64,000 nucleotides of DNA from a virus. Under the pieces are notes generated by a model, which did not search any database, was not told the origin of the DNA, and was given only the letters and a program-made list of their open reading frames with translations. The DNA lies in the IMG/VR virus record IMGVR_UViG_3300043424_000514, positions 1 to 64,000 of that record; one strand, written 5' to 3'. The position numbers and the translations under genes are program-made. This document shows positions 1-62,326 of the stretch, one piece after another. The stretch's first letter is position 1, and each line of letters opens with the position of its first letter.

Positions 1-737
1 TCCTTCGAGGTCGCGTTGAGTGAGATGATCGAGTGTGCCGACTCGTTGCCCGAAAGGGTTATTGAAATGATTGGGAGTGGGAGTTTCTTGAGTATCGTGA
101 GCCATAGATTTGTTGGGATGCGATCGCTTTCAACGAGCGCGTATTTGTAGTGGGAGATTGTTTCTTCGGCGCGGCGGCTGGCCTTACCGAGTCGTTCAAT
201 AAAGGTTTTGTCCCCGCTGACGGGGTTGAGGAGGAACCACGCGCCAACGCGGTTGTATTTGACGAGGCGGTCCACCATGCCGCGAGGCGTGGCGTATCCC
301 CAGACGAGTTGGCCTTGGCTACGCTCGTCGGTGAAAATAACGGTCTTCTCGCCCTCCGCGTAGAGCACGCGAAGATAGTCGTCCACCGTGACGCCGCGAG
401 GGTCCAGCGGGCTCAGAGCCTCGATCTCCTCGTAGGCGGTTTCGCCCTCGGCAGTGGCTTCTTTGATGGCCTCGGGGTCGATGTCGTGGCGCGGGATGTA
501 GTGTGCGCGGTTATTACACCCTCCTCCGCGGACCTTGCGAAGCGTGTTAGCCACTTCCCCCGGCTGGGCGGGGCGGGACATCCAATAGTCCACCCACGCC
601 TCGATGTCGTCATCCTCCAAGCCAGAGTTCACCAGCGAGTTTACGACGAGGTAAAGCCAGCGGTGGCAACCTTCGCCCGCCGCCGGAGACTCGGGAAGGC
701 CGATGCTACTTGGTTCCAGTTCCTTCGGGTCGATCAT
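1..737 (-). CDS. DNA primase (RepB/AEP-like), runs off window start
   Basis: Not in ORF track. Manual translation from ATG at 737 (ATGA overlap with upstream stop): MIDPKELEPSS...YALVESDRIP...LPIISITLSGNESAHSII, resembling RepB-type primase catalytic motifs; next to the DNA polymerase. Confidence 0.65.
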   Translation of the reverse strand, partial: MIDPKELEPSSIGLPESPAAGEGCHRWLYLVVNSLVNSGLEDDDIEAWVDYWMSRPAQPGEVANTLRKVRGGGCNNRAHYIPRHDIDPEAIKEATAEGETAYEEIEALSPLDPRGVTVDDYLRVLYAEGEKTVIFTDERSQGQLVWGYATPRGMVDRLVKYNRVGAWFLLNPVSGDKTFIERLGKASRRAEETISHYKYALVESDRIPTNLWLTILKKLPLPIISITLSGNESAHSIISLNATSK

Positions 738-864
738 TTGAGGTGGATGGGGATTTCTTGAATATCTGGTCGTAGTTCTCCCGATATTTCTTCCAATCGG
801 TTCCGGCGCGGGCCTGTGACCCTGTTCCAACTCTTACTTTTTTTAGCTCTATTGTTTTGCTCAT
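706..864 (-). CDS. small basic hypothetical protein (52 aa), overlapping both neighbours
   Basis: Manual translation MSKTIELKKVRVGTGSQARAGTDWKKYRENYDQIFKK...; resembles a common short phage peptide (GxGSxxR...ENYDxIFKK). Confidence 0.45.
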   Translation of the reverse strand: MSKTIELKKVRVGTGSQARAGTDWKKYRENYDQIFKKSPSTSNDRPEGTGTK

Positions 865-1066
865 AAATTTCTTGGCAGACGCGGCGGATGCGCTTTTCGT
901 TGAGCCCTAGCGCAAAGGCCGCGACCGCAAAGGCGTCGGAGTTGAAAAACCGCATTGCTGCATCCCTTTCGCTCTTGAGTTCCAGATCGGCACGGGCCTG
1001 TTCGATGATCGCGCAGAGGACTCGCCTGGCTCCAATCGTGTCCAGTGGCGGAAACTTATTTGACAT
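734..1066 (-). CDS. hypothetical protein
   Basis: 3' part of ORF 734..1309; likely start MSNKFPPL at 1066 overlapping polymerase stop; stop overlaps primase ATG. Confidence 0.55.
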   Translation of the reverse strand: MSNKFPPLDTIGARRVLCAIIEQARADLELKSERDAAMRFFNSDAFAVAAFALGLNEKRIRRVCQEIYEQNNRAKKSKSWNRVTGPRRNRLEEISGELRPDIQEIPIHLK

Positions 1067-2822: not shown

Positions 2823-2834
2823 TCAGAAGTGTTC

Positions 2835-2864
2835 GGGTTGCGAGGTTAATACACCCCGCAACCC
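2835..2864. promoter_or_regulatory. inverted repeat GGGTTGCG/CGCAACCC enclosing a GGTTAATACACC motif variant
   Basis: 8-bp arms at 2835-2842 and 2857-2864, directly upstream of the polymerase start. Confidence 0.45.
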
Positions 2865-2871
2865 TTTTTGT

Positions 2872-3108: not shown

Positions 3109-3109
3109 A

Positions 3110-3874: not shown

Positions 3875-3942
3875 TTTTGGTATTTTTCGGTTTTGGTTTT
3901 TGCTCTGGGGTGGGGGTTAGACCTTATGAGGTTATTACTCGT

Positions 3943-6321
3943 TCAAAAGTTTTTTGATTTTTTTAAGAACGAGATCGTGCCCTCGACTTTCGCTGCGTTG
4001 GCGTCGATCAGCTTGTCGCGTAGAGCCGCTTTGGCTTTAGCCATTTGCCCACGCTCCGCGGTGCGGGAGTAGGCTTTTTCCAACTCGCCGATTTTTAGTT
4101 TGGCGCAGGCCGCAAAAGCCTCCGGCGTGATTTTTTCTTTCACGACTTCCCAAGCGGCTTGCGGATCGGTGATCTCAAACGCGCTGCTCCGTTCGGCGAG
4201 TTCCCACCCTGGAATTTCCACGCCCGAGAGGCGAAGCTCCAAGGCCCGCGCATCCACTTTCTCAGCCCAGCCTTTGAGGATGGGAGCGAGCTTTTTGGCG
4301 AGTGCCATTTTCTCGGGATCGGTGATGACCGCAGGGTCGTATTCAGGTGGTAGCGCGAGTTCTTCCGGCTGATACTTGCTGGCGATCGTGAGCGCGAGGC
4401 TGTTGAGCTTGTGGCACTGTGCGCGGTTATTACACCAAGCGCAGTGACCGCCTGTCTGGTAGCTTGCGGGGTCGTTTCGTTTGGCGGCGGCGACGATGGC
4501 AGTGACCGCAGCGACAAGCCGGTCGTAATCCGCATCGCGAGTCCACTCCACGACATCAATGATGCCCTGGAAGGGGAGCAACACATGAACAGTTATTTTG
4601 TTTATGTTGGGGTGTGCATCCCAAATTCCGACGCTGTAAGCCCAAAATTGAGGCGAATCCGCTTCATATTTCCCCCATGCGAACTTGTAATCAACCAATT
4701 CGGCGGTGTCACCGTGAAGCATGATGTGGTCGATGTGCCCGAACTGATCGAGCACGATGTAGCGCCGTTCCCGAATTTCCTCCAGCCCTGCTCCGCACTT
4801 CTCGCGAAGCTGCCGGAGGTATTGCAGGCAGAGCCCCGCGCATTTGCGAAGGAACTCGTCATCGGCGGGGATGACATCGAGGTTCTCTTTTTCGATCGCG
4901 AGGTGCCCTAGGGTGCCGCGGTCAGCAGCGGTGGTGTCTCGCGTGTTGTCGTTGCGAAAGCCTGGGCATTTCGCTTTTTCTTTGAGTGACGACGGAGAAT
5001 GCTCCGCGTGTTCTTTTTCTGTTGGTGCCGCCGCGATCGACACCTCTGCTATGTCGCGGTTGGTTTCCTTTGTCATAATTCCTTCGTTCAAAATTTGCTG
5101 ATTCTCGCGCTTGTGGCGTGTGAGGTGCAGAGCGGCCTGCTCGACTGTTCCTGGCGCGTAAAGGCGCAGCGCCAGAGCGCGGTTTTTCGCCCCGACCCGC
5201 CGCACTCTCCCGATCGCTTGTTCCTCCGCGGTGCCTGAAAATTGCGGGCAAAGAAGGGCCGTGCGTGGCGCGTTACCGTGCGTGTCGTGGAGGTCGATGG
5301 ATTGACCTCCGGCACCGATTTGAACAACGAGACAGCGCAGCACATTGGCCTGAAATCTATCGCGGCTTGCCTGTCGCAATTCCTGCGACACCCTCCCGTC
5401 AATCGTCTCGCTCATCTCCCCCAGCAATGCGGCGGCTTTGTCGATCGACTCGTGGAAATTGAGAAACAACACAACGCTCCCGCCTTCTTCGACGATCTCT
5501 TTCGCTCGCTCCACGAGGTAGGGGACTTTGATGAGTTCGATCGCTTGGCGTTGCCGGAGGTTCTTCACCGCAGCGGGGTCTTCAATGTCGATCATCTCCG
5601 AGTAGAGTTTGAGGATTTCGTCGCGGTCCTCGCTCGAAAGATGGATCGGCTCATCGCAGAGCCGGAGTTCGGGGAGTTGGTCAGACAGCACGGCATCCAA
5701 GGTGCGGTTGCCGCGACTCGTAAAAATGGAATGGTGCAGATGCTCCATGCGGAGCTTGTTCTCGGGAGTCTTCGGGTCCCATTCTAGACCGCCCCAGCGC
5801 CCGTTCTCAGCCCCCATCTTTCGCACCCAGCCCCAGAACGCCCTAGGGTGAAACAAGCCGAGCTTCGCCCCGATCGCTTTCATGCGAAGCGGGCTCTCCG
5901 CTGCGGTTGCCGAGAGCATCAGCACGCGGTAGGGAGCGGCTTCGAGCATCTTGCTGTTCGTGCTTTTGTAGCCTGCGAAAACATGAACTTCGTCCACGAC
6001 CAGGAGGAGCGTTTCAGGAGTCCACTTAAAATCTTTGCCTGACTTTTTGACCCATGGGGTGTTTCCCGCACGGAGCTTTTCAGGGTTTTCGACAAACACC
6101 GGCTCGATGCCGAACGCCTCCAGAGTAGCTTGCCACTTGGCTTTAACGCTCTTGGGGCAGACGACCCCTACGGGGAGACCGTAGCGACGGGCTGTTTCGC
6201 AGGCGATGATTGTCTTGCCGCCCCCGCAGCCGGTCGCCTCCAGCGAGGCTCCGTTGGCGTCGAGACTCGCGAGGTTTTTCTCCACCGCGTCTTGCTGGAA
6301 TGGGTAGAGGGAAAACTTCAT
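3943..6321 (-). CDS. SF2 helicase fused to Cas4-like/DUF2800 PD-(D/E)XK nuclease
   Basis: Walker A GCGGGKT, DEVH, SAT, QAIGRVRR; C-terminal HSPSS..CPG, RGTLGH, GHID, VDYK, QFWAY, CAWC..C. Confidence 0.85.
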   Translation of the reverse strand: MKFSLYPFQQDAVEKNLASLDANGASLEATGCGGGKTIIACETARRYGLPVGVVCPKSVKAKWQATLEAFGIEPVFVENPEKLRAGNTPWVKKSGKDFKWTPETLLLVVDEVHVFAGYKSTNSKMLEAAPYRVLMLSATAAESPLRMKAIGAKLGLFHPRAFWGWVRKMGAENGRWGGLEWDPKTPENKLRMEHLHHSIFTSRGNRTLDAVLSDQLPELRLCDEPIHLSSEDRDEILKLYSEMIDIEDPAAVKNLRQRQAIELIKVPYLVERAKEIVEEGGSVVLFLNFHESIDKAAALLGEMSETIDGRVSQELRQASRDRFQANVLRCLVVQIGAGGQSIDLHDTHGNAPRTALLCPQFSGTAEEQAIGRVRRVGAKNRALALRLYAPGTVEQAALHLTRHKRENQQILNEGIMTKETNRDIAEVSIAAAPTEKEHAEHSPSSLKEKAKCPGFRNDNTRDTTAADRGTLGHLAIEKENLDVIPADDEFLRKCAGLCLQYLRQLREKCGAGLEEIRERRYIVLDQFGHIDHIMLHGDTAELVDYKFAWGKYEADSPQFWAYSVGIWDAHPNINKITVHVLLPFQGIIDVVEWTRDADYDRLVAAVTAIVAAAKRNDPASYQTGGHCAWCNNRAQCHKLNSLALTIASKYQPEELALPPEYDPAVITDPEKMALAKKLAPILKGWAEKVDARALELRLSGVEIPGWELAERSSAFEITDPQAAWEVVKEKITPEAFAACAKLKIGELEKAYSRTAERGQMAKAKAALRDKLIDANAAKVEGTISFLKKSKNF

Positions 6322-6614
6322 TCCTCCTCGAAGCCTGCAATCTGGGCGGCACAGCGGGCATAGCCCGCAATGTCCACATAGGAATCGCGAGTTGGCGTGT
6401 AAACAGCCCGTGCGATTTTGAGGAGAATCATCAGGTGAGCCACATCCAACGGCGAAAGCTGGGCATTCGGGTCTTTTCGGGCCTGAATATAGGCATTCCA
6501 GTGGGCCGCGATTCGCTCGTGGTTGGGCGTCGCTTTGTCGTAATCGCGGCGACGATCGCCGGTCGTCACTTCAATGGCGGTTTGAAGAATCGAGGTTGTG
6601 TGGTTATTACTCAT
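6318..6614 (-). CDS. DUF6378-like protein (putative nucleotide diphosphohydrolase)
   Basis: GDRRRDY...ERIAAHWNAY...MILLKIAR...DSYVDIAGYA signature. Confidence 0.8.
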   Translation of the reverse strand: MSNNHTTSILQTAIEVTTGDRRRDYDKATPNHERIAAHWNAYIQARKDPNAQLSPLDVAHLMILLKIARAVYTPTRDSYVDIAGYARCAAQIAGFEEE

Positions 6615-6954
6615 TCACCAAAGAAGACTCGCGGAGGATTTCGATAAATTTTTCGGCGGAGAGAACCACGATCCATTCGTGGTCGTTCCGCTTGTGAAAT
6701 ACGACAGGGATTTTCCCTGGCTTGGCGTCGCGCTGCGCCTGCTCAAGCCAGACATAAGGGTTCCCCGCCTCCACCCTTTTGCACTCGATGTGCAGCGGTA
6801 GAGAGTCGCACACGACATCGCTTTCGGTCAGACCGAAGCGCCCTTGCGAGAACTGGACCCCACGCTTCGCGGGGAACCCCTGATCGGTGAGAAATCCGGC
6901 AAGCTCGCGCTCGCCCCGTGCGCCCTTGGCGCGTGAATTGATTCGCTTGCTCAT
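6607..6954 (-). CDS. Hjc-like Holliday junction resolvase
   Basis: SRAKGARGERE, SDVV, IECKR PD-(D/E)XK motifs. Confidence 0.85.
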   Translation of the reverse strand: MSKRINSRAKGARGERELAGFLTDQGFPAKRGVQFSQGRFGLTESDVVCDSLPLHIECKRVEAGNPYVWLEQAQRDAKPGKIPVVFHKRNDHEWIVVLSAEKFIEILRESSLVNE

Positions 6955-7244
6955 ATATTAAAAAGTGAAGTTCGCCCTTTGCACCAGCGCACCAAGTCAG
7001 CTTCGCGATAGACGAATTTTTTGAGGCCCAGTTTTTTGTATGGGAGGTTCATAGCTTGACGCCAGTAAGCCAGGTTTCCCCGACTTACTGGACGACCTAA
7101 AAGCTCTGAAAGTCTTTCCAGAGCCCGATCCGCTTCGTAGCTCGTTTCCGCAGGAACTTCGGCGGGCTTTGCCCCGACAATTTCCAAACGGATTTTACCC
7201 CCTGGTCCCTGCTCTGCTTTGAAGTAGTCGCATTCCAGAATCAT
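6951..7244 (-). CDS. excisionase-like / winged-HTH DNA-binding protein
   Basis: LGRPVSRGNLAYWR...LPYKKLG..FVYREADLVRW resembles HTH_17; alternative start 7301. Confidence 0.55.
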   Translation of the reverse strand: MILECDYFKAEQGPGGKIRLEIVGAKPAEVPAETSYEADRALERLSELLGRPVSRGNLAYWRQAMNLPYKKLGLKKFVYREADLVRWCKGRTSLFNI

Positions 7245-7382
7245 AATCTTAAATAGCGATACCTCCTCAAATAGAGCCTGAGAGCCCTTCGGATGATCCA
7301 CGACGCGGTTTTTTTCATTCGTTTTTGTTCAAGCTCCAGACCCTTTTCGATGTCTGGCGCTGATGGAAAAGATCGAATCTGT

Positions 7383-7559
7383 TTAGGATTTCGAGGGTTC
7401 ATCATGCGGCAACCCAATCAACTCAGGGTCGTCCAAAGCGCACTCAGCGGAGTCTTTCAAAAACTCTAGGCTGAGAACATCAACGGAAGTTCCCGATTTA
7501 GCAGAAAGCTCCTTTAGGGTTTCGGCCAATTCATTGTCGATTGTCAGGGTTAATATCAT
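7383..7559 (-). CDS. small ribbon-helix-helix-like regulator (58 aa)
   Basis: Not in ORF track; MILTLTIDNELAETLKELSAKSGTSVDVLSLEFLKD has CopG/Arc-type strand-helix-helix pattern. Confidence 0.55.
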   Translation of the reverse strand: MILTLTIDNELAETLKELSAKSGTSVDVLSLEFLKDSAECALDDPELIGLPHDEPSKS

Positions 7560-7656
7560 ATACGGTTATATTATTTTTATTTTGATGGTTTGGTTATTAC
7601 ACGCCCTGGGGAGAAAGTGTTGAAATGGAGTGAAGTTCTGAGGGGAACGCTTGTTT

Positions 7657-7947
7657 TTACTTCGAGAGCTTTTTGTGAAGAACCTTGGCAAGCTCGATGA
7701 TCTTCGGGTCCATCCCGTCTTTAGCGCGTTCTCTTGGCGAATCGCTTTGCATGGTGAGGGATTTTTTGGCTTGCTCAAGGAAGACCCCACTCGGGTCTTC
7801 TTTTTCTAGGTATTGTTCGGTTGCTTGACGCATTAAGGCGCTAATTGAAACGCTTTTATATGCGGCCATAATTTTTAAGGCGTAGTGGACCTCGTTGCTT
7901 TCAACATACGAGACGCGACTTGTTCCTTCTTTTAGTTGGTTAGGCAT
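7657..7947 (-). CDS. ribbon-helix-helix-like regulator (candidate repressor)
   Basis: RVSYVES..HYALKIMAAYKSVSISALMRQATEQYL; SD GAAAGGA upstream; next to integrase. Confidence 0.6.
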   Translation of the reverse strand: MPNQLKEGTSRVSYVESNEVHYALKIMAAYKSVSISALMRQATEQYLEKEDPSGVFLEQAKKSLTMQSDSPRERAKDGMDPKIIELAKVLHKKLSK

Positions 7948-7972: not shown

Positions 7973-7998
7973 TCGGGTTGTTAGACAACGCAACCCGA
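7973..7998. promoter_or_regulatory. inverted repeat TCGGGTTG/CAACCCGA between integrase and regulator
   Basis: 8-bp arms 7973-7980 and 7991-7998; related to the 2835 element. Confidence 0.45.
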
Positions 7999-8005: not shown

Positions 8006-9211
8006 TCACCAAGTTAATAACCCGTCAAGTTTATTTTCCCTCGCATACCTCCGAACCCGTTCGGGGGTTATTGAAAACCAACCTTCTGCGCTGACTTTTG
8101 AGACGAGGGCTTTGTAGTGTTTATTGAGCATGGCGGGAGAGTTCCCCGCAATTTCCGCTGTCATCGCGGCGTTCCGGTGCAGAGCCAGGTGGTATGAGCA
8201 GAACGAGTGCCGCAGTGCGTTTTGTTTGGTCTCCACCCCGCAGGCTTTCAATCGAGCTTCATCGAGACTCTCGATTTTGTGTGTCGGGACGATAGGCCCT
8301 GCCTGCGGCCCGAACTCTTTCAGCCATTGCTTGAGGCACTCGGGGATGTCCAGAGTCCGCCCAGTGCGGGTTTTTGTGATTTCAGGGCCGAGGCGGATCA
8401 TTTTTTCGTCGAACAAGACATCAGCCATCGTGAGTTTTTTGTTCGAGGCTTCGGAGCGTCTTGTTCCTCCGAACGCCATCAGCGCCACATATGGCAGATA
8501 TTTTCTGTCAGTCGCGATGAAGAGGCGGCAAAGCTCCGGTGGGGTGTAGAACACCGGCGTCTCGTCGCGCAGAGCGGGAAGGTCGCAGTCGATATTGACT
8601 TTGTCCTCGGAAACAAACCGCTGTTTTCTTGCGAACCGAAGCATCGCCAAGAGCGTCCCGAACAAATTGTGCTTCGACCTCGCGTTGTATTTTGAGGCTC
8701 TCAGGAAGGCCAGGTATTCTTCGGGCGCAATCGTGTCGATGTGCCGCTTGCCGAACTCCGGCTCCCATACATTCCGGTGGTGGCGTAGCGTCTGGTAGTA
8801 ACGCTGCGAAAGTCCTCGCTCCTCGGCGCGGGCGTAGAACGCATCATAGACCTCGGAAAAACTTTTGGGATTCGCCGAAGTGTATTCGTGGAATTTCAAG
8901 TAGAACTCGACCGCGACATGGAGCGGGATTTTGCCGAGGCGTTGGCGGCACTCGTTGAAATAAACGATGTCTTCCCCGCAGAGCATCGTGGCTGCTCCGT
9001 CGCTAGTCGCGAGATGTTTCACGATTCGCTCCGCCTCTATCATAGCCGCGGCTTCTTTGTTGTAGGATTTGTTGTAGGTCTTCTTGCCTACTTTCCATTT
9101 TAGGCGGTGCGTTGTGTATCCGTTGCGAAGCAGTTTTGAGATTCTCACTACGGCGTGTCCGCAGCGCATGACCGAGTTTTTTTCGTCGATGTTTTCAATT
9201 TGGGTTTTCAT
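8006..9211 (-). CDS. int: tyrosine recombinase / integrase
   Basis: GTRRSE (R), TKTR (K), NALRHSF (HxxR-like), AGNS, KHY (Y); 401 aa. Confidence 0.9.
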   Translation of the reverse strand: MKTQIENIDEKNSVMRCGHAVVRISKLLRNGYTTHRLKWKVGKKTYNKSYNKEAAAMIEAERIVKHLATSDGAATMLCGEDIVYFNECRQRLGKIPLHVAVEFYLKFHEYTSANPKSFSEVYDAFYARAEERGLSQRYYQTLRHHRNVWEPEFGKRHIDTIAPEEYLAFLRASKYNARSKHNLFGTLLAMLRFARKQRFVSEDKVNIDCDLPALRDETPVFYTPPELCRLFIATDRKYLPYVALMAFGGTRRSEASNKKLTMADVLFDEKMIRLGPEITKTRTGRTLDIPECLKQWLKEFGPQAGPIVPTHKIESLDEARLKACGVETKQNALRHSFCSYHLALHRNAAMTAEIAGNSPAMLNKHYKALVSKVSAEGWFSITPERVRRYARENKLDGLLTW

Positions 9212-9226: not shown

Positions 9227-9377
9227 TTTGTCCCAAAAATTGGGACAAAGTGTGTTTTGCGGTGTAATAACCTATACAAAGAATAATACACCGCAACGAA
9301 AAAACCCGTAGGCTTGCGTAGGAGAACCAGAAATTTGTCCCCGAAAAATTAGGACAAAAAAGAACGGAGCCTACGGG
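9227..9377. promoter_or_regulatory. divergent control region / candidate attP with four inverted repeats
   Basis: IRs at 9227-9249, 9257-9296, 9305-9377 and 9334-9358; AT-rich; between divergent int and terL. Confidence 0.55.
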
Positions 9378-9477
9378 GCTCGAATTCGTGTATGAAATTG
9401 TATAAGGTATTACCAAAAAATATATTGTGTAAAAGCGAAATTGACTGTGTCCCAAGTTAGACCTACCTTGTCCTGAA

Positions 9478-12907: not shown

Positions 12908-12942
12908 TTTTTCGCTTGTTTGATGTAATAACCACATAACCC

Positions 12943-15401: not shown

Positions 15402-16054
15402 ACCTAAGTAGCATTAAACCAAATTTTAGCGCGTCCGCTGTGGCTAACACTTTAGTCTTGCGCGACGCAAATAATAGAATGGTCGGCAAGGCAAGTGAGT
15501 TGCATCCCGATGGGATTCATACCATGACTGCGGCAACCACCCTCGCTGACGCGGATGAGTTGCTGGTTTGGGAAGCCTCAACATCCACATTAAAAAGAAT
15601 CACAAAATCTGCTTTTAATTTATCTATGAACACTAATAACCCTGTCGCCAGATGGAGCGGAATTTCTGGGGCTCACGCACTTCAGTATGAATATGGTGGA
15701 AGCTCAAATAATACTTCTTGGGCATCTACTAGCGGAGGAAACATACAAATACTACAAGCAGGAACTTATAGGGCAGTAATAGGACATGGTAACAGTTACT
15801 TAACTGGCTATATGGCAAGTGGAACTGCTGAAATCAGGTTCGTTCAAAAAACTCCTTCTGCGGGGACCCTAGTCGCTGTTCGGGCTGGAATTGGGAGCGG
15901 TCAGTCTATTTTTACTGCTTGCAATGGGTCTGGGGAGCTAAGTTGCACTTTTACAGCCGCAGCGAACGCTACTTTCGCTTTGGAACACGCTGCTGTATCA
16001 GGTAGCGCGGTTTACGGAGGTGGGGGGTATGTCGAGATTGAAAAATTAAGCTAA
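15398..16054 (+). CDS. short tail fibre / receptor-binding protein
   Basis: ANTLVLRDA fibre motif, beta-rich C-terminus, lower GC; followed by a chaperone. Confidence 0.6.
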   Translation: MNLSSIKPNFSASAVANTLVLRDANNRMVGKASELHPDGIHTMTAATTLADADELLVWEASTSTLKRITKSAFNLSMNTNNPVARWSGISGAHALQYEYGGSSNNTSWASTSGGNIQILQAGTYRAVIGHGNSYLTGYMASGTAEIRFVQKTPSAGTLVAVRAGIGSGQSIFTACNGSGELSCTFTAAANATFALEHAAVSGSAVYGGGGYVEIEKLS

Positions 16055-16808: not shown

Positions 16809-16858
16809 CTTTTCCCAGAACTAGCAGTAATAACCACATAACCCAACCCAATTAAAAC

Positions 16859-22486: not shown

Positions 22487-22770
22487 AAAAAACCTCCGGC
22501 AGAGTCCGAATCCGTGGCAAGTGGTGGAAAATCGAAATAAAGCGGCTCGCGCCTATCAAAAAAGAAGGCGGCTGGTCCTCGCTCCACGGACTCTGTGATT
22601 ATTCCAAGCGAACGATTTACTTGAACCCGCAATTCAACATGAAGGCGACTCTGCGGCATGAAGTAACCCACGCCTGCCAGCCCGACCTGGACGAGCCCAC
22701 GGTGGAGGAGATCGAGGACGCCCATGAAAATGCCGACAAAGTTTTTGAAAAACTGGTTGCCGAATGTTAA
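22483..22770 (+). CDS. small HExxH metallopeptidase-like protein
   Basis: GLCDYSKRTIYL...TLRHEVTHA. Confidence 0.65.
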   Translation: MKKTSGRVRIRGKWWKIEIKRLAPIKKEGGWSSLHGLCDYSKRTIYLNPQFNMKATLRHEVTHACQPDLDEPTVEEIEDAHENADKVFEKLVAEC

Positions 22771-22792
22771 TAACCTTGTAGAATAATAACCC

Positions 22793-28328: not shown

Positions 28329-28346
28329 GAGCTTCCCCTCCCCATG

Positions 28347-28385
28347 ACCCCACAGGGACTTAGTCTCTGTGGGGTTTTTCTTTTT
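28347..28385 (+). terminator. intrinsic terminator
   Basis: ACCCCACAGGGAC-TTA-GTCTCTGTGGGGT followed by T tract. Confidence 0.8.
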
Positions 28386-28564
28386 CGCAACCTCTTGAAA
28401 ATTGTCTGTTGACTTTGCGGGATTGCAGGGTTATTACATTCCTGACGCTGCTTGCAGGCGGTAACTGCATGGACATTACTTGCGTGTAATTCCGATCCCC
28501 GCACGGAAAAAACGAACGAGGTGTAACAACCTCACAACCTCAACTTTTTGTTTTTTCTAATCCT

Positions 28565-34666: not shown

Positions 34667-34697
34667 GGCATGGTGTAATAACAGCAAAGGTTATTAA

Positions 34698-52020: not shown

Positions 52021-52551
52021 TCACGGCTTGTCTGTTTCTTCAAACACTGCGTCAATTTCACTGAGCGAGCGTCGTTTGTAAAGTTTGGCTTCCGAGTTCA
52101 AAAAATCAATATCTGACAGAACTGCGATGTTGACCGCGTTTGCGTTGGTCTGCTTCTCATCGAGGCCCGTGGCTCGACGCCCCATGTCCGCAGCCGTCTT
52201 CACTTTCTCAACCTTGAGAAGAAGGTCTTCCTCGGTCATTAGCTCAGTGAACTCCAAAATTCGATTGGCCGCGGTGTATTCCCGTTCGCGAATCTGATCG
52301 GCGCGTTCTTTCCACATCGCCTCATTCGCCTCGACGGCGTTCTGTTTAAGCTGTTTCTCGACCTTCTTGATAACCCGAGGCGACAGTTCTTTGCCCAGCC
52401 AGTTCTGCCGGTAAGCGCGGGTTTTAATAGTGCCCTGCGGAACCTTGAACTTCTTGGAAAGCTCTTTGAAAGTCGTTCCGGCAATAAACATTCCCTTGAT
52501 TGTCTTCCAATCAATCGCGTCCCTGCCCGTCAATGGGTCTTTCTTGGGCAT
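52021..52551 (-). CDS. terS: terminase small subunit-like protein
   Basis: DWKTIK..F.AG.TFKELSKKFKVPQGTIKTRAYRQNW HTH typical of TerS; helical middle, GLD motif. Confidence 0.65.
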   Translation of the reverse strand: MPKKDPLTGRDAIDWKTIKGMFIAGTTFKELSKKFKVPQGTIKTRAYRQNWLGKELSPRVIKKVEKQLKQNAVEANEAMWKERADQIREREYTAANRILEFTELMTEEDLLLKVEKVKTAADMGRRATGLDEKQTNANAVNIAVLSDIDFLNSEAKLYKRRSLSEIDAVFEETDKP

Positions 52552-53237: not shown

Positions 53238-53274
53238 GGGAGCAAGGTTGCACGGTTAATAATCTGATGCAACA

Positions 53275-53469: not shown

Positions 53470-53505
53470 AAGGTTAGTTTCTTTCTATGGTTGGTTGTTG
53501 GGTTA

Positions 53506-53988
53506 TTATCTCTGCTCCTCAAGCCACTCGGCGATGTTGTCGTAGTAGGCCCAATGCAGCAGGGAAATGGCTTGATCCTCCTCCAAGGCGGAGGGGAGGG
53601 GAGCGCATCGGCGCTCGCTCTGGGAGAGCAAAGCGTGGGTGAGAGCAGGGATCATTTCCCTCCACTGGAAAGGAAAGAGCCGGTGCATCACCGTCGCAAC
53701 GAATCGGTCGGCCAGAACGAACGCATCAGCAAAATGCCTTGCGTCAGCGCCCCAGTGGGAACGATCCGCGCTCCAGTCAATCGTGGGGTAATCCTCCTCG
53801 AACGCCTCGTCCCCAAAGATCAGGCGGAAGGCGGCTTCCCACTCTCGGGTGTGGGCGACCCATGCACCAAGTTCAACCAGCAGGCCCTCGATCTTGGGGT
53901 CCCCTGGAGCTTGGAATCTTGGCTGCACCCTGGGGGTGTTGCGGTTGATGTGGTAGTAGGCTTCGGTTGGTAGGCAGGTTTGTGTCAT
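53506..53988 (-). CDS. hypothetical protein
   Basis: start MTQTCL at 53988 after SD GAAAGGA. Confidence 0.7.
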   Translation of the reverse strand: MTQTCLPTEAYYHINRNTPRVQPRFQAPGDPKIEGLLVELGAWVAHTREWEAAFRLIFGDEAFEEDYPTIDWSADRSHWGADARHFADAFVLADRFVATVMHRLFPFQWREMIPALTHALLSQSERRCAPLPSALEEDQAISLLHWAYYDNIAEWLEEQR

Positions 53989-54025
53989 GTGGTTCCTTTC
54001 GGTTGTGTGTTTTGTTGTTGGGTTA

Positions 54026-54292
54026 TTACGATTCGGCATGAGTCATAACCGTTGTGCAGAGGCCGTCCTCGGCGCAGTTTTCGGTGATGATCCAGATTGC
54101 TCCGAGGGGAGTATCGAAACAAGAAACGGCGCGGTCGGGATCGACGGGGCCTTCCACGCATCCCCTGTCACCCCGCCAGTGGCGGTCGATGTAGAGGTGG
54201 GCGAGCAGGCCGTCTTCGACGAGTTGGTGGGCCGCTTCGGTGAAGCGCATCATCCCCAAATCGAATTGTGGTTCTCCGAGTATGTCAGTCAT
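54026..54292 (-). CDS. conserved plasmid/phage hypothetical protein
   Basis: RHWRGD.G...IWIITE...TTV pattern. Confidence 0.65.
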   Translation of the reverse strand: MTDILGEPQFDLGMMRFTEAAHQLVEDGLLAHLYIDRHWRGDRGCVEGPVDPDRAVSCFDTPLGAIWIITENCAEDGLCTTVMTHAES

Positions 54293-54603: not shown

Positions 54604-54647
54604 GGTTGAGTTTAGACATGGGTTGTGTCGTTTCGTTCAATAAAAAA

Positions 54648-56261: not shown

Positions 56262-56295
56262 GGTTGTGTTTCCTTTCTTGTTGGTTGTTTGGTTA

Positions 56296-57717
56296 TTACT
56301 TGGCGGACGGGCCGAACGCTTTGGCGAGGGCTTCGTTCACCTTCTTGACTTGCTCGGTTTCGGGCAGGCCCTCGATCGTCTCGGCGACCCAGATGTTCAT
56401 ACCCAGCAGGCGCAGGGATGTCGGGACATCGGCCTCGTCGATCGCATACAGCAATGCTTCGGAGAGGATGCGAGTGGTGGGGCGCACCTCGATGAAGCTA
56501 TCGGCGGCAAGCACGCCGCACTCTTTCCAGAAGGCGATGATCTTATCGACCACGGCGGGGGTGAACCCTTTCGCCTTGGCCGCAGCCGACAGGACAGCAC
56601 GCAGCTTGGCCTCCTCGACCTCGACATGGACGATGACGAAGCGTTCTTTGCCAGCAGGGCAGTCGGCATTGACATCGAACTTCGCGCCGACATTGGTGGT
56701 GGCGGCGACGGCGAGGTTCTCCTTGGGGCACAGGATTTCCTCGGTGCTCTCGACGCCGGTGACGGGATCGACAATCGGGCGACCCGTGTTGAGTGCGTAG
56801 TAGAGCTTGCCGTCGATCTCACGGGCGCTGAACGGGGTCAGCAACGACTGGCGGGCGGCACCTTGGGCGCGGTAGATTTCGTCAAGCAGAACGAATACCT
56901 TCTTGCCCGCGGCGGCGAGTCGCCATGCACGGGTGAGCGGGCCGTCCACCCAATCGGTCTTGGCTGTGCCGAAGCCGAACATATCCGACGGCATCGTCTC
57001 AGGCTGGAAGCCGAACTCGATGTAGGCATCGAACTTCTTGCCCCATGCACGAGCGCCGTAGGTCTTGCCACTGCCCTGCCCGCCCTTGATGAGCACCGGC
57101 TTGAGGGCGGCACCAGGCTGGCAGAATCTCTCGAAGCACAGGGTTGTCGTGTCTTCGCTTGTCGGCGCAGTTGTGATCCCTAGGACAGGGGCAATCACGG
57201 CGGTAACGGCGGAGTTGCCCCGCTCGATGGCGTCTTTGACGAGGTCGGTCAACTCGTCGAGCTTGTTGTTGCGCTTTGCCAGCGAGTCGGACATGACGCG
57301 GTGCCCTTCCTTCAAAGCCTCGATGTCGGGGAGCAGGGTCGGAGGTAGCTCCACTGCGGCAGGCGAGTGCGCCTTCATCTCCACGCGGACCGAGAGTTCG
57401 TCGATTGCTTCAGCGAAGGTGGTGCTGGCCGACTCGATGCGGGAGGTCAACTCGTCAAGCTGCGGTTGCACTGCGGCCTTGAGGGCGGCGGCAAGCAAGG
57501 CGGTCTCTCCCCCTGTGGGCGAGGTAGGGGCTGACGCGCCGAAGGTGCGGGCCTTGGCCTCGTCGCCTGTGATCTCCCCCTTGAGGTAGGCTTTGAGGAT
57601 TCCGCTATTGGCGGTGCTCACCCAAGTTCCGGTGGCGGTGGCTTTCACAGCCTTGCGGGCTTCGGTGTAGCCGAGGGCGTCGATTTGTGCGGTGGTGAGT
57701 GTCGTTAGCTTTGTCAT
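56296..57717 (-). CDS. MoxR/CbbQ/CobS-like AAA+ ATPase
   Basis: GGQGSGKT, WVDGPL, LLDEIYR, ATTN, ERF. Confidence 0.88.
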   Translation of the reverse strand: MTKLTTLTTAQIDALGYTEARKAVKATATGTWVSTANSGILKAYLKGEITGDEAKARTFGASAPTSPTGGETALLAAALKAAVQPQLDELTSRIESASTTFAEAIDELSVRVEMKAHSPAAVELPPTLLPDIEALKEGHRVMSDSLAKRNNKLDELTDLVKDAIERGNSAVTAVIAPVLGITTAPTSEDTTTLCFERFCQPGAALKPVLIKGGQGSGKTYGARAWGKKFDAYIEFGFQPETMPSDMFGFGTAKTDWVDGPLTRAWRLAAAGKKVFVLLDEIYRAQGAARQSLLTPFSAREIDGKLYYALNTGRPIVDPVTGVESTEEILCPKENLAVAATTNVGAKFDVNADCPAGKERFVIVHVEVEEAKLRAVLSAAAKAKGFTPAVVDKIIAFWKECGVLAADSFIEVRPTTRILSEALLYAIDEADVPTSLRLLGMNIWVAETIEGLPETEQVKKVNEALAKAFGPSAK

Positions 57718-57756
57718 GTTGTTGGTCTTTCTATTGTTGGTTTGGTTGTTTGGTTA

Positions 57757-58428
57757 TTATTCTGCGGGGTTAATCTTTGTTTTCTTGGGGCGCAAGCGGT
57801 TGACCATCTTGCGGAGATATTTGATGTTGTCTTGTGCCGCCTCGATGCAGTTCTCTGGGGTGGCTGATTTGCCGTAGCGCCAGTTGTTAAGCTGGTCTTG
57901 TCCGGTGCTGGCGCAGTCCAGGCAATACTCTGCCCATCCTGCGAAGTGTTCGATGCTCCGGCCTTCGAGGTGATACCAAAGGTCGTCGAGTATAGACTCG
58001 CAGACTTCGTCGCCTTCGCGTTCATCCCATCCGGCAACAGGTTCGTAGTCGCCGCATCCGGCGATGCTGTCCTCACGGACAACGAACCAAGTCTTGCCGT
58101 CCTTCCTGCCCTGTTCGATAGCCTGAACGCTCTCGTGCCACCCCGTTTCGCAGTCCGACTCGCCGCAGTTCCATGCGTTGCCGACATCCTCGGCCTCACC
58201 ATCCCACTCGAAGTCGCCTTCTGGGCAATGAGCAAACAAGGACTCCTCGGTGATCTTGGTGCGGTTGACTGGCTTGAACAGCTTGGCCTTGAGCTTATAG
58301 ATTTCAGACTGTAAGCGGGCGACTTGCTTCTCCTGTTCTGGGGTTAGGGGGTTCTCCGCTTCTTCCTCTTGATTGTAGAGGTGCTTGTCGGGGTCGAGGT
58401 AGTCGTTATGTGCAGATGTGAATGACAT
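57757..58428 (-). CDS. hypothetical protein
   Basis: acidic Cys/Trp-rich ORF bounded by spacers. Confidence 0.7.
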   Translation of the reverse strand: MSFTSAHNDYLDPDKHLYNQEEEAENPLTPEQEKQVARLQSEIYKLKAKLFKPVNRTKITEESLFAHCPEGDFEWDGEAEDVGNAWNCGESDCETGWHESVQAIEQGRKDGKTWFVVREDSIAGCGDYEPVAGWDEREGDEVCESILDDLWYHLEGRSIEHFAGWAEYCLDCASTGQDQLNNWRYGKSATPENCIEAAQDNIKYLRKMVNRLRPKKTKINPAE

Positions 58429-58467
58429 GGTTTGGTTTCTTTCTTTGTTGGTTTAGTTGTTGGGTTA

Positions 58468-58857
58468 TTATTCTCCGAAGTAAAAGCAACGGGAGTAATC
58501 AAGAAGCACTCTCTCGTCGTCGTTGGTGATGGGAAGTCGCTCCCATGAGGTGAACCAATCTTGATACTCCAAGGTGGCGCTTTCAGGATCGCCGAAGCAA
58601 TCAAGCTGACCGAGGATTCGGACGGCGGGGCCTCCGGTGCAGAGGAGAATTTGGAACTCTCCAGCTTTTAACTCGCTTGGAGTTGAGGCCCAATCGGAGC
58701 GCACCTCTACGGACAAGGGGTCTTCTTGGATGGATGTCATTGCATCCTCGCGGGCGTCCTCGTCGGGGGAATTGAGGGCGGCGACCATCTCTCGGATGGA
58801 GTCAAGTTGCGAGGCGGCTTGTTGTTGGGCGCGGTTGTTTTCAGTGTCTTTGTTCAT
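58468..58857 (-). CDS. conserved phage hypothetical protein
   Basis: EDPLSVEVR...ILLCTGGPAVRI...YQDW. Confidence 0.75.
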   Translation of the reverse strand: MNKDTENNRAQQQAASQLDSIREMVAALNSPDEDAREDAMTSIQEDPLSVEVRSDWASTPSELKAGEFQILLCTGGPAVRILGQLDCFGDPESATLEYQDWFTSWERLPITNDDERVLLDYSRCFYFGE

Positions 58858-58892
58858 GGCTATGTATCCTTTCTTTGTTGGTTGTTGGGTTA

Positions 58893-59117
58893 TTATTCTG
58901 CGGGGGAATCAAGGGCGGCGAGGAATTCGCGGGCGGCATCGACATCGGTGTCGTCCGCCGCAGGGTGGATCAGACGGGAGACAATGGACTTCGTCTCAGT
59001 AAGCAAGAGCAGCCACGCCTTCTCGGCATGGAGCCCTTCCCTGTGGTGGTCTTCGCAATACTCGGACAAGGCCCAGTGGAGGGTGTCGAGTGCGCCGGTA
59101 AGTTTATGTTTGCTCAT
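58893..59117 (-). CDS. hypothetical protein
   Basis: bounded by spacers with SD. Confidence 0.7.
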   Translation of the reverse strand: MSKHKLTGALDTLHWALSEYCEDHHREGLHAEKAWLLLLTETKSIVSRLIHPAADDTDVDAAREFLAALDSPAE

Positions 59118-59139
59118 AGGTTGTTTCCTTTCTTGTTGG

Positions 59140-59475: not shown

Positions 59476-59505
59476 TGGTTTGTTTCCTTTCTTGTTGGTT
59501 GGTTA

Positions 59506-59913
59506 TTACTCGTAACGAGGGGCTGATTCTTTGCTGTTGTCTGATTGCCCTGGGGAGGATTCGACTGTGACCCACAGGTCTCCGCCATCGCTCCACCCTA
59601 GGGGGATATACCCCTCGTCATGGTAGGCGGTGTCGATGTCGGGCAGGTTAGCCATGGCAGCATGGCGGGACGGGGCCTCGGCGCGGTTGGCCTTGGCGAC
59701 AAGGGCCTTGGCTACTTCGAGCCACTTCTCGGCGACGCTGCGGGTGGCAAAGGGGACGGTGCCGTGAAGGGCGTTCACGGTATACCACCACCCGCCTTCT
59801 TCTGGCCCGCCGTAGCAGCGTTCTCTCCGATACACGGAGACCCAAGCGGGGCTGGCTTGCTCGAATTCGGTGTGGGCTTCGATCTTTTCTACGAGTTGTT
59901 CGATGAGGTTCAT
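59506..59913 (-). CDS. conserved phage hypothetical protein
   Basis: YGGPEEGGWWY motif, ends PRYE. Confidence 0.75.
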   Translation of the reverse strand: MNLIEQLVEKIEAHTEFEQASPAWVSVYRRERCYGGPEEGGWWYTVNALHGTVPFATRSVAEKWLEVAKALVAKANRAEAPSRHAAMANLPDIDTAYHDEGYIPLGWSDGGDLWVTVESSPGQSDNSKESAPRYE

Positions 59914-59939
59914 AGGTTGTTTCCTTTCTTGTTGGGTTG

Positions 59940-60128
59940 TTACTTGGATGCTTTTGCGATGCGATAAAGGAGTATCTCGCGCAAGGTCGATCCCCTAGGG
60001 AGGTCTCGCACGAACTCAAACGCACGGCTTAACTCCTCGACGCTGGGTAAAGGGGCGTCGTGCGACAGGTGGTTGGCGACATTGATGTGACCAGCCTCAA
60101 TGAGCAATGGTATGTGTGGGTGTTTCAT
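59940..60128 (-). CDS. hypothetical protein
   Basis: start MKHPHIP at 60128 after SD. Confidence 0.65.
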   Translation of the reverse strand: MKHPHIPLLIEAGHINVANHLSHDAPLPSVEELSRAFEFVRDLPRGSTLREILLYRIAKASK

Positions 60129-60151
60129 TTGTTTCCTTTCTTGGTTGGTTA

Positions 60152-60448
60152 TTACTCTTCGTTTTCTGCGGCTTCCTCTGCGGTGCGCCAGCATTCTTCG
60201 TAGTAGGTGTTGTTGTCGTGCCGCTCCTTGGTAGCCAGATGACCGAGGTGGTTACAGAAGTGGTGCGGCGGGCCGATAATGATCCACTCGGAGCCGTCGT
60301 CTCCTTCGGATGTTGTGACTGACCATATCTGGTCGTCGTCAAAGCCTGCGTCTTTGGCTTCCTTCCAACTTTGGAAGTAGTCTCCGTCTGGTCGCCGGAT
60401 TTCTTCATAGGGGAAGTCGCAATCAAAGCAGATGTTCATTGGTTTCAT
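60152..60448 (-). CDS. hypothetical protein
   Basis: start MKPMN at 60448 after SD; QIWSV...HFCN.LG. Confidence 0.7.
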   Translation of the reverse strand: MKPMNICFDCDFPYEEIRRPDGDYFQSWKEAKDAGFDDDQIWSVTTSEGDDGSEWIIIGPPHHFCNHLGHLATKERHDNNTYYEECWRTAEEAAENEE

Positions 60449-60467
60449 TTGGTTGTTTCCTTTCTTG

Positions 60468-60722: not shown

Positions 60723-60741
60723 ATTGGTTAGTTTCCTTTCT

Positions 60742-60999: not shown

Positions 61000-61114
61000 T
61001 GGTTTGTTCTTTCTATTGTTGGTTGTTGATGTGGATGTTCTGGAGGGAACAAAGGGTTTCTGTTATTCGATAACAGGCTCCCTAGGGAACGAGGTTACTC
61101 TCCCTAGGGAGGGG

Positions 61115-62296
61115 TTAAGACACCGCTGCCGCTGATCCGTTCAATCCTTTTTTGTTTAGGAATGCGACGAGTTCTCGGTAGCGGTTGCGCCGTGAGGGGT
61201 GGTTGACGAAATCGCAGAAGCACTCGGCGGTGATGTCACGCAGGCTGACGACACGGACAAACTCGACGAGGGCCGCAACGAACTGGACATTCTTGAGGAA
61301 GCTGGACTTCTTGAGTGTCGCACGGAAGGCACGAACCTCGATGCGGTCGCCCTCACGAATGGCGGCGGCGGCATAGCGTCCGGTGTAGGGGTCGCGAGCC
61401 CAAGGAACTACGACATCATAGTTTGCGAACCCATTGGACCCACGGCCTGTGACCTTCTCGCAGAACTTCCGATTGACAGGGAAGAACCGGAGGAACTTGA
61501 CCTGTTGCAAGCGGGTCAGCGAACTGCGGCGGATGCTGATGTGGATGCCGTAGCCTGTGCCTGCATCCCATCCGATTGCCTTGCCCCGTATGTCGTCGAG
61601 GAACCCAGACCAATTCCCTTTGCGGTAGGTGCGGAGGCCGAGAGGCGGGGCGACAATCTCCACGCCAAGCTGCTCATGCAACGAGCCGTCCCTCTCGGGG
61701 ATGAATCCGTGATCCTTTGCGGCAAAGCAAATGTCGTTTAGGGATTCTTTGTTGCTGGCGCATATCTCCAACTCGACACCGAACAAGTCGGCGAGGGGGT
61801 CGTGTTTCTTCCACAGGTTTCGAGTGTATTGATCCCCGTGGTATTGCCCTCGACCTGATGATTCCTCATCCTCATCCTCCGGCTCTGGCTCCCAATGGTA
61901 GTCGCCATCGCTGTCCCAGTGGTAGAGGTCGTCTTGGTGTTCTTCATAGCAGACGGTGTAGCCGTCCACCTCGACGCTACTAAAATTATTATCGCTGAAA
62001 TAATTATCGGAGTGTTCGCAGAAGAAGGCGTTGTTGCCAGTGCAACAACCGCACCATTGCTCCTCGTGACCACGACGGTTGACAATGACGGTCCGGCTGT
62101 CATCGGAAGGGTGGCAATCACCGCAATGGCCGCAGTCGAAGGTGTCCTCCGTGTAGTGAATGTCGCCATCGTAGGTGGTGCAATAGTCGCTCCCGTCGAT
62201 GATGCCTTGAGCCACGAGCCAGTCGCAGAGTTCCTCGGTTCTCTTGCTGGGGCGGGTGTTCTGCCAAACTTTGCGGATGTAGTCTTTGAGTTTCAT
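61115..62296 (-). CDS. amidoligase (COOH-NH2 ligase) with N-terminal Cys-rich region
   Basis: FGVELE, ERDGSL, GVEIVAPP, GIHISI, GRY, IEVRAFR; CxxC repeats. Confidence 0.85.
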   Translation of the reverse strand: MKLKDYIRKVWQNTRPSKRTEELCDWLVAQGIIDGSDYCTTYDGDIHYTEDTFDCGHCGDCHPSDDSRTVIVNRRGHEEQWCGCCTGNNAFFCEHSDNYFSDNNFSSVEVDGYTVCYEEHQDDLYHWDSDGDYHWEPEPEDEDEESSGRGQYHGDQYTRNLWKKHDPLADLFGVELEICASNKESLNDICFAAKDHGFIPERDGSLHEQLGVEIVAPPLGLRTYRKGNWSGFLDDIRGKAIGWDAGTGYGIHISIRRSSLTRLQQVKFLRFFPVNRKFCEKVTGRGSNGFANYDVVVPWARDPYTGRYAAAAIREGDRIEVRAFRATLKKSSFLKNVQFVAALVEFVRVVSLRDITAECFCDFVNHPSRRNRYRELVAFLNKKGLNGSAAAVS

Positions 62297-62326
62297 AATG
62301 TCTCCTTTGGTTGTTGGGTTATTACA

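Follow-up and report, generated by a model that had tools for sequence, protein, structure and literature searches.

The DNA analyzed here (the window) is the first 64 kb (64,000 nucleotides) of the 72,870-bp (72.9-kb) IMG/VR virus record IMGVR_UViG_3300043424_000514, and the subject of this report is an eight-base polar word, TAATAACC, that recurs throughout it. The word occurs far more often than expected by chance, follows the direction of transcription, lies mostly at gene junctions and is conserved in relatives of this phage. Taken with its flanks, R-N-G TAATAACC N3 Y-A-A, it would be a core promoter that does not depend on a -35 box and possibly also an operator, a reading to which we assign a probability of roughly 0.55. 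The first-pass annotation, made from the letters of the window, had described the word as a stoperator-like motif, analogous to the asymmetric, oriented repressor sites of mycobacteriophage L5 and perhaps read by ribbon-helix-helix (RHH) proteins encoded beside the integrase.

Number, orientation and placement of the word

The 23 copies of TAATAACC counted by eye in the first-pass annotation were all recovered in the window, every one at the coordinate and on the strand given there (Table 1), against a mean of 0.37 and a maximum of 2 in 100 dinucleotide shuffles. The whole record holds 24 copies; the additional one, at 70015 on the minus strand, lies 8 nt before a better ATG. The reversed word occurs only 1+1 times in the record. 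The longer form that had been proposed, GGTGTAATAACC, did not hold up as a general extension, being exact at only three places (509, 4425 and 9261). Among the literature matches listed for the letters TAATAACC, none concerned phage regulation, which is not proof of absence from print.

Enrichment persisted against a codon-preserving background. When codons were shuffled synonymously and intergenic DNA was shuffled as well (n = 200), the mean was 1.42 and the maximum was 4, compared with 24. The word begins with TAA and often overlaps the preceding gene's stop codon, so it looks like a double stop, and it had been anticipated that the excess might vanish once double TAA stops were modeled. It did not: shuffles that kept the three bases after each stop averaged 2.45 copies and never exceeded 7, again compared with 24. 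A double-stop artifact is ruled out by these shuffles and by the 14 of 24 copies in which the TAA of the word is not used as a stop codon. There are 40 TAA stops, 11 of which read TAATAA, and CC comes next in 10 of those 11. TAATAAC, present in 17 of 50 gaps, is the top intergenic 7-mer and outranks the ribosome site. Besides the 24 exact copies, eight one-mismatch variants lie in sense orientation in intergenic DNA of the 71.7-kb genome.

Orientation was assessed on a gene map built from lists of open reading frames (ORFs) and a codon-usage score. A rightward gene block spans 9478-51764, and a leftward block runs from 9211 down through base 1 to 52021. Record bases 1-1182 and 71698-72870 are direct copies that are 81% identical, and reading frames, including a gene, cross the junction of the record ends; for these reasons the record was treated as a circular or permuted genome with about 71.7 kb of unique sequence, the contig seemingly wrapping once round the genome into a strain variant. 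On this map 20 of the 23 copies in the window, and 21 of the 24 in the record, are in sense orientation, the exceptions being 8015 (+), 28429 (-) and 34689 (-). This bears out the claim that the copies point with local transcription. Their placement at gene junctions was confirmed as well: 19 of 24 touch the 5,045 nt of noncoding DNA, which make up roughly 7% of the genome. A Chi-, KOPS- or nick-site-like polar word was rejected because 19 to 21 of the 24 copies lie in or at this 7% and because their orientation flips with the genes.

Only the copies at 509, 4425 and 8015 are truly intragenic. The antisense copy at 8015 is probably a chance occurrence, judging from its codons and those of relatives. 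The copies at 509 and 4425, in unrelated genes, each lie within a 19-nt patch that is the same in sequence and codon phase. The residues they encode are different in the strain-variant copy and in a 62.8-kb relative (G5), and the copies are therefore recent; at 4425 the residues differ in G5, which means that this copy was made by amino acid changes. Either selection for more sites or short-patch conversion could have produced the two. The antisense intergenic copies at 28429 and 34689 each have a sense variant as partner and are retained by close relatives.

Conservation and anatomy of the sites

This wholly uncultured family of freshwater phages is large: the searches reached more than 100 of its contigs in IMG/VR. 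The 344-amino-acid (aa) protein led to six close relatives, which keep the word, including the copy just before the gene for this protein. In G5, at 66 to 76% nucleotide identity, there are 13 copies. Eight of them, in the leftward-type block, are clearly on the A-rich strand; at the remaining 5 the skew is close to zero. TAATAACC is present in 30 of 31 loci found with the helicase (62 to 97% identity). Across the family, 92 of 116 contexts are on the A-rich strand, which we used as a proxy for the sense strand.

A search with an alignment of the 96-aa RHH protein (RHH1) reached 74 loci, all of which contain RHH1, and 71 of them could be assessed for a site after this gene. In 59 of these 71 the word lies 26 to 121 nt past the RHH1 stop codon in sense orientation, as an exact copy in 37 and with one mismatch in 22; many of the loci are near-duplicates, and 45 different contexts were listed. 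Judged from this distribution, the post-RHH1 site, represented in the window by copy 7592, is the oldest and most stable site. In a 14.5-kb relative (L122) it survives only with three extra A's inside. The site at 9265 is kept as TAATAACC or TATTAACC in 9 of 11 alignable regions among the relatives listed. Only the clade with MPNxLKxG at the N terminus of RHH1 has a dense network, of 2 to 8 copies per 10 kb; clades with other RHH1 N termini carry 0 to 2 copies per 10 kb. The octamer itself is unchanged across clades in which RHH1 is 38 to 85% identical and the integrase is 39 to 86% identical.

In the outgroup clades, those with other RHH1 N termini, the word is rare, and some of its contexts look like canonical promoters. 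In 4 of 12 distinct contexts, before three different genes, the arrangement is TTGnnn-N17-TATAAT followed by AACC. In the same clades a terminator hairpin and T run lie 9 nt before the post-RHH1 word, and a start codon follows 4 to 12 nt past the word in 8 of 10 sense contexts.

The family consensus is R(-3) N G(-1) TAATAACC N3 Y12 A13 A14. Upstream of the word no information was detected besides the R at -3 and the G at -1. Downstream, a pyrimidine occupies position 12 in 66 of 85 contexts, and A occupies position 13 in 59 and position 14 in 56 of the same 85. The Y-A pair at positions 12 and 13 occurs in 78 of 116 distinct contexts (67%), compared with 4 to 32% at the other offsets from 9 to 30. 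Within the word, letters 1, 2 and 5 to 8 are fixed, and orthologous sites differ at letters 3 and 4 (TATTAACC, TAACAACC). The sense intergenic one-mismatch variants retain the flanks, such as a preceding GGTG and a following N3-CAACC, and variants and exact words interchange at orthologous sites among relatives.

The word also marks a boundary from coding-like composition to a G-poor, A-rich leader. In the leftward block at 53.5-62.3 kb an exact copy stands at nine junctions, and at eight of them it supplies the stop of the preceding gene and comes before an A/C-rich spacer, GAAAGGA and, 18 to 34 nt on, an ATG. Two 42-nt intergenic leaders without the word, at 63293-63334 and at record positions 64410-64451, are 95% identical and consist of TTTAAGAAAACCTTAAAC and then a ribosome site; this is a second repeated leader type, found among the genes at 63-66 kb. 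Almost no genes of this uncultured family have a known function, and the word offers a handle for annotating its operons, its short-leader or leaderless genes and its true start codons.

Promoter, operator and alternative readings

We propose that TAATAACC would act as an AT-rich element of the -10 type that needs no -35 box, as the phage family's own start signal. Transcription is predicted to start at the A five bases past the word. The mRNAs of many relatives would have very short leaders or none, and those of the leftward block of this phage would carry a longer, A/C-rich leader of 18 to 34 nt with a GAAAGGA ribosome site. A second reader, either a conserved phage protein or a host protein, might bind the same site, which could then be an operator too.

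The geometry of the Y-A start, the fusion to TATAAT in the outgroups and the placement of the word after terminators all favor a promoter over a stoperator. In the window, the strong intrinsic terminator at 28346-28386 ends the upstream unit, so the next genes need a start signal, and the only sense candidate before a 23-kb gene run is the variant at 28524. In a -10 hexamer, letters 3 and 4 are the two least constrained places. The A of an ATG falls exactly at position 13 in 4 family contexts, which fits leaderless transcripts, and an open-frame start lies within 12 nt in 34 of 92 sense contexts, compared with 15 of 116 at a control anchor. Other start signals were not detected: sense intergenic DNA of the genome contains no TATAAT and none of the 15 matches to TAnnTTTG, and matches of the sigma-70 type in 1-20 kb numbered 10, no excess over the 8.7 expected. 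If the word sites are not promoters, the genome shows none at all. The constancy of the octamer while the integrase and RHH proteins diverge points to a conserved reader such as RNA polymerase.

Several observations weigh against this proposal. The relative L122 is the sole helicase relative without any copy, and its gene order is kept. A -35 box is not supported: 19 of 85 contexts have at least four matches to TTGACA at 16 to 18 nt, which is within the control range, and a -35 hexamer is present only in the 4 outgroup TATAAT contexts. Neither register of the -10 box is clean, since the TAATAA register keeps T(-12) and A(-11) but has A instead of T at -7, and the nnTAAT register retains T(-7), yet 59 of 111 contexts carry G at -11. 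Scans of roughly 85 proteins with Pfam and PHROGs revealed neither a sigma factor nor an RNA polymerase, and no large protein contains a DxDGD motif; most of the phage proteins belong to no family, which makes a novel phage specificity factor conceivable. In 7 of 92 contexts the start codon is 0 to 1 nt past the word, too close unless starts were miscalled. Finally, the antisense copies (28429 and 34689) and the recent intragenic copies (509 and 4425) have no obvious gene to serve. A search for RNA runs yielded one study, whose best run contained 5% of the words, and three runs gave ten short contig pieces, seven of them from the RNA run; one contig ends 12 nt downstream of copy 7592, and another extends as far as copy 6602. 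Such contigs cannot show 5' ends, and nothing was drawn from them. A role resembling a MotA box or a -35 element was rejected because several copies lie only 8 to 20 nt from a start codon.

The conservation of AACC and Y-A-A exceeds what a host sigma-70 promoter would require, from which we infer a second reader. The only candidate in view is RHH1, which is encoded just upstream of the putative oldest site. The best structural matches of its profile are all RHH repressors (omega, ORF56, CopG and Arc), with E values of only 1.3 to 9, and its phmmer match to a CopG regulator is weak (E = 0.17).

A formal parallel for the promoter reading is the T4 late promoter, TATAAATA at -13 to -6, which is read by gp55 (PMC1524935). 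The A of Y-A is the seventh base after TAATAA, and this layout matches that promoter. The two share a single near-invariant AT-rich 8-bp element a few bases before the start, no -35 box, many copies before genes and a beginning in TA that can overlap TAA stops. They differ in that the last four letters here are AACC and not AATA, in that the word marks both replication-type and virion-side genes and not clearly one temporal class, and in that no gp55-, gp33- or sigma-like gene was found among the ~85 proteins.

There is a second parallel in bacteria. The Bacteroidota -7 element TAnnTTTG acts without a canonical -35 hexamer. It resembles the word in its TA, two free letters and four fixed letters (here TA-wy-AACC), but the fixed letters differ, and TAnnTTTG itself has no sense intergenic match in this genome. 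A bolder version of the promoter reading, which we regard as doubtful, is that TA-nn-AACC with a fixed start would form a self-sufficient promoter for a novel RNA polymerase specificity, due to an unrecognized phage factor or an unusual host sigma, and would also be the operator of one conserved RHH repressor. If so, the family wires nearly every transcription unit to one on/off word, a promoter-embedded analogue of the stoperator made from unrelated parts. A true -35-independent promoter without a recognizable sigma would point to a new way of directing RNA polymerase.

The alternative that survives best, unlikely but still a serious competitor, is a pure repressor network in which the word would be a docking site without promoter activity that silences the prophage. 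Its reader would most plausibly be the 96-aa RHH protein, occluding a few promoters and blocking elongating polymerase elsewhere. The two dozen or so (~24) asymmetric sites, oriented with transcription on both arms, are arranged as described for L5 in the relevant part of PMC9283540. As far as the cited sections of PMC9283540 and PMC6550527 describe them, Cluster A stoperators (L5 gp71, TipsytheTRex) are 13 bp long and bound by a monomeric repressor with a helix-turn-helix and a stoperator domain. The likeness extends to the twenty-odd short sites on both arms, mostly in short intergenic DNA, and to an integrase at the point where the gene strand flips. Against this, the core of the word is 8 bp (about 14 to 16 with flanks), it has a start-site geometry, it is invariant across clades, it is fused to canonical promoters in outgroups, and the regulators nearby are RHH proteins. 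According to the portions of PMC6550527 consulted, stoperators are mostly not promoter associated, and their motifs diverge together with the repressors between related phages and subclusters. The octamer, by comparison, does not diverge with RHH1 or the integrase. A Cluster A-type repressor was not found among the ~85 proteins, though a very divergent form could escape such scans. Y-A at the start distance, the TATAAT fusion and the terminator-then-word order are not predicted by a roadblock. Thus, the number, asymmetry, orientation and dispersal over both arms agree with the stoperator-analogous system that had been suggested, and the promoter geometry, the invariance of the octamer and the missing repressor do not; the comparison is an analogy, partly supported, and not membership.

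More specific arguments for a repressor come from the RHH proteins and the finer structure of the sites. AACC recurs at letters 5 to 8 and 13 to 16, a period of 8 bp that resembles the RHH operators of ParG or MetJ. Operators of this class are built from short repeats (the omega heptads, ParG ACTC boxes and MetJ met-boxes) in local arrays at one or a few promoters. The word likewise has a sub-site period of 7 to 8 bp, tandem and inverted arrangements (the tandem pair 22768/22784, the inverted pair 34676/34689, and 9261 with a degenerate partner at 9281-9292) and RHH genes beside the key site; unlike them, it forms two dozen single sites spread over 70 kb and not local arrays. The most conserved site directly follows the RHH1 gene, whose product has an invariant beta-strand, R-V-S-Y-V-E; however, clades with the same beta-strand hold the word at the low density given above. 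The new intragenic copies arose at the cost of amino acid changes. The dense network coincides with the MPNxLKxG start of RHH1, and L122 has lost both that type of N terminus and the word, but these correlations are single phylogenetic events and prove no link.

The proposal that RHH proteins beside the integrase read the word is thus borne out in part. RHH genes do adjoin the integrase, and the 96-aa protein stays a candidate. The 58-aa RHH2 is present in only 8 of 31 loci and therefore cannot read a family-wide word. The neighboring 116-aa protein at 6951-7301 has no Pfam or PHROGs hit. Genome-wide silencing by dispersed oriented sites has so far been documented for Cluster A mycobacteriophages. 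The pairing of an 8-bp word with a 96-aa protein raises the question of whether such silencing arose independently with an RHH repressor.

A signal at the RNA level, which we consider improbable, would make the word part of an intercistronic leader (double stop, unstructured A/C-rich spacer and ribosome site) or a processing or translation-start signal. The sense orientation of 21 of 24 copies is what such a signal would give, as are the 10 copies that supply a stop codon and then an A/C-rich, G-poor leader with GAAAGGA, and starts 4 to 12 nt past the word without a Shine-Dalgarno sequence are found in many relatives. The leaders are unstructured, no stable RNA fold being found at five motif regions; at the same time, no Rfam family matches in the window. 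The word is not an all-frame stop, and among 116 family contexts its TAA frame is open upstream in only 29, the two remaining frames being open in 25 and 17. At 63-66 kb there are leaders that have the same ribosome site and lack the word. The start-associated sequences (SAS) of Cluster K mycobacteriophages are similar in being repeated, family-conserved intergenic words of one orientation before many nonstructural genes of different families, but they are 13 bp, contain the AGGAG ribosome site and lie 3 to 7 bp from the start codon, according to the part of PMC3203893 that describes them; here the distance is 0 to 205 nt, and the ribosome site, where present, is separate.

Very improbable, in our view, is a recombination scar or selfishly spreading junction cassette, in which the word and leader would move by short-patch gene conversion and function in module shuffling, not in expression: leader pairs that are 84 to 95% identical (57726-57766 with 58438-58477, and 56259-56306 with 58855-58903), the 19-nt patch shared by 509 and 4425 and the word between tandem paralogues at 12926 would fit, but the octamer is invariant while flanks differ (85 to 116 contexts with less than 67% flank identity), it persists at orthologous sites between clades whose helicases are 62% identical, and its strict orientation and fixed flank preferences argue for selection on a read-out.

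Gene map, coordinates and further observations

The phage is of a temperate type, with an integrase at 8006-9211 and an adjoining attP-like region. Family scans with Pfam and PHROGs also annotated a family-A DNA polymerase, a helicase fused to a DUF2800 nuclease, a RusA-like resolvase and tail-fiber-type proteins. The 589-aa protein at 9478 is terminase-like by a P-loop seen by eye only, without a family hit. The label "capsid protein" for the 344-aa protein gene (16859-17893) was dropped, as it has no Pfam or PHROG hit. No cultured relatives were found, the best helicase match in a cultured phage being 25% identical, and the window contains no tRNA gene. A genome scan for a host with the 344-aa protein returned only distant partial matches in assorted metagenome-assembled genomes.

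The 27-nt core of the attP-like region (9362-9388) resembles a tRNA T-loop, T-stem and acceptor 3' end; other family members have a different tRNA-like attP core. The TTGTCCC/GGGACAA repeats change in step with the integrase among relatives and are, by inference, arm-type integrase sites. The palindrome TTGTCCC-N-GGGACAA had been considered as a repressor operator; it was reread in this way because it is confined to the surroundings of the tRNA-like core and tracks the integrase. After integration, copy 9265 would be parted from the rightward genes.

Table 1. Copies of TAATAACC, one-mismatch variants and other features of the window (window positions; G4, G5 and L121 are relatives)
Feature	Position	Strand	Remarks
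Exact copy	509..516	-	Intragenic (codons C-N-N), sense; absent from diverged end copy and G5
Exact copy	3930..3937	-	5 nt past helicase-nuclease TGA stop, 55 nt before next ATG; word at same junction in G5 and L121
Exact copy	4425..4432	-	Within helicase-nuclease gene, sense; CAWCNNRAQC, compared with CAWCDHRAEC in G5
Exact copy	6602..6609	-	First TAA is stop of 6607-6954; overlaps start of 6318-6614
Exact copy	7592..7599	-	57 nt past RHH1 stop, 32 nt before RHH2; most conserved family site
Exact copy, antisense	8015..8022	+	Complement of integrase C-terminal codons G-L-L; relatives read GGGTTAATAAC (G-L-I-T-W)
Exact copy, GGTG-extended	9265..9272	+	Head of rightward block, in attP-like region, 205 nt before 589-aa gene
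Exact copy	12926..12933	+	Between two tandem paralogues, 9 nt before GTG
Exact copy	15634..15641	+	In stretch of uncertain coding status
Exact copy	16828..16835	+	19 nt past stop, 23 nt before 344-aa gene; kept in 6/6 close relatives
Exact copy, first of tandem pair	22768..22775	+	First TAA is stop codon
Exact copy	22784..22791	+	1 nt before ATG of 22793-23560; word also precedes the orthologous genes of all clades
Exact copy, antisense	28429..28436	-	In 237-nt gap after terminator; divergent pair with variant 28524
Exact copy, antisense	34689..34696	-	Faces sense variant 34676 across 5 nt; no stable hairpin
Exact copy	53501..53508	-	TAA is stop; A/C-rich leader, GAAAGGA, ATG 31 nt on
Exact copy	54021..54028	-	TAA is stop; A/C-rich leader, GAAAGGA, ATG 32 nt on
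Exact copy	56291..56298	-	TAA is stop; A/C-rich leader, GAAAGGA, ATG 29 nt on
Exact copy	57752..57759	-	TAA is stop; A/C-rich leader, GAAAGGA, ATG 34 nt on
Exact copy	58463..58470	-	TAA is stop; A/C-rich leader, GAAAGGA, ATG 34 nt on
Exact copy	58888..58895	-	TAA is stop; A/C-rich leader, GAAAGGA, ATG 30 nt on
Exact copy	59501..59508	-	TAA is stop; A/C-rich leader, GAAAGGA, ATG 25 nt on
Exact copy	60147..60154	-	TAA is stop; A/C-rich leader, GAAAGGA, ATG 18 nt on
Exact copy	62317..62324	-	2 nt past TGA stop; AAAGGAG, ATG 20 nt on
Variant TATTAACC + N3 + CAACC	2844..2851	-	Before DNA polymerase gene; same variant in L121
Variant TAACAACC	7976..7983	-	28 nt before RHH1 start
Variant TAACAACC + N3 + CAACC	28524..28531	+	33 nt before ATG 28565; exact TAATAACC in G4
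Variant TAATAACA	34676..34683	+	14 nt before ATG 34698
Variant TATTAACC + N3 + CAACC	53254..53261	-	Before ATG 53237
Variant TAACAACC	59935..59942	-	TAA is stop of 59940-60128; before ATG 59913
Intrinsic terminator	28346..28386	+	14-bp stem, U run; -26 kcal/mol, z = -4.4, 0/200 shuffles as stable
RHH1, 96 aa, RHH-like, candidate reader	7657..7947	-	Invariant R11, S13, Y14, E16
RHH2, 58 aa, weakly Arc/CopG-like	7383..7559	-	RHH_1 E = 0.004 (below cutoff); Arc-like E = 0.006
116-aa protein	6951..7301	-	Kept in 31/31 loci; excisionase-like C terminus by eye
Tyrosine integrase	8006-9211	-	phrog_1, E = 5e-20
attP-like region	9228-9475		TTGTCCC/GGGACAA repeats round tRNA 3'-end-like core 9362-9388
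Small-terminase-like protein	52021-52551		Family scan

The helicase relative that lacks the word, L122, has a canonical TATAAT 5 nt before the ATG at its post-helicase junction and a hairpin with a T run directly before its polymerase gene. CCTTTATC in L122 proved to consist of collagen-like coding repeats.

In the window, two tandem 255-aa paralogues (12140-12907 and 12943-13710, plus strand) are 70% identical in nucleotide sequence, and their 35-nt gap holds TAATAACC. Collagen-like Gly-X-Y genes lie near these paralogues and account for the many CCCCAGGG words. A 363-aa protein encoded among the virion-side genes (34698-35789, plus strand) is an unusual auxiliary gene product with weak matches to a citrate synthase C-terminal domain (E = 1.8e-7) and a sulfotransferase (E = 3.4e-5). 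A single ORF of 3,988 aa occupies 39091-51057 on the plus strand. Its C terminus matches a PHROG of virion structural proteins, its residues 2780-2952 give a weak, below-cutoff match to an ADP-ribosyltransferase domain of the "polyvalent protein" type, and no relative in the PDB was found by sequence.

Outside the window, the record contains a 1-kb gene-free stretch (about 66,660-67,670; L102:3660-4670) in which GGGGGTTTAGGGG/CTAAACCCCCC repeats are numerous in either orientation and the center is AT-rich, probably a replication origin with iterons. At 68204-68500 on the minus strand (L102:5204-5500), a 98-aa protein consists of an NrdR-type zinc ribbon (E = 2e-15) without an ATP-cone and is possibly a DNA-binding regulator of the phage.

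In the 71.7 kb there are 28 copies of the palindrome CCCTAGGG (25 in the window, from 1859 to 61102), mostly within genes and in various frames, with C...G flanks on 28 of 38 CCTAGG sites. It looks like a highly iterated palindrome or a word related to methylation or restriction. There are 16 copies in G5 and 10 in a 35.8-kb relative (G3), and it is absent from the clade with 62% helicase identity. Several other 6-bp palindromes are nearly absent (GGCGCC, 0; GGTACC, 0; CCCGGG, 1).

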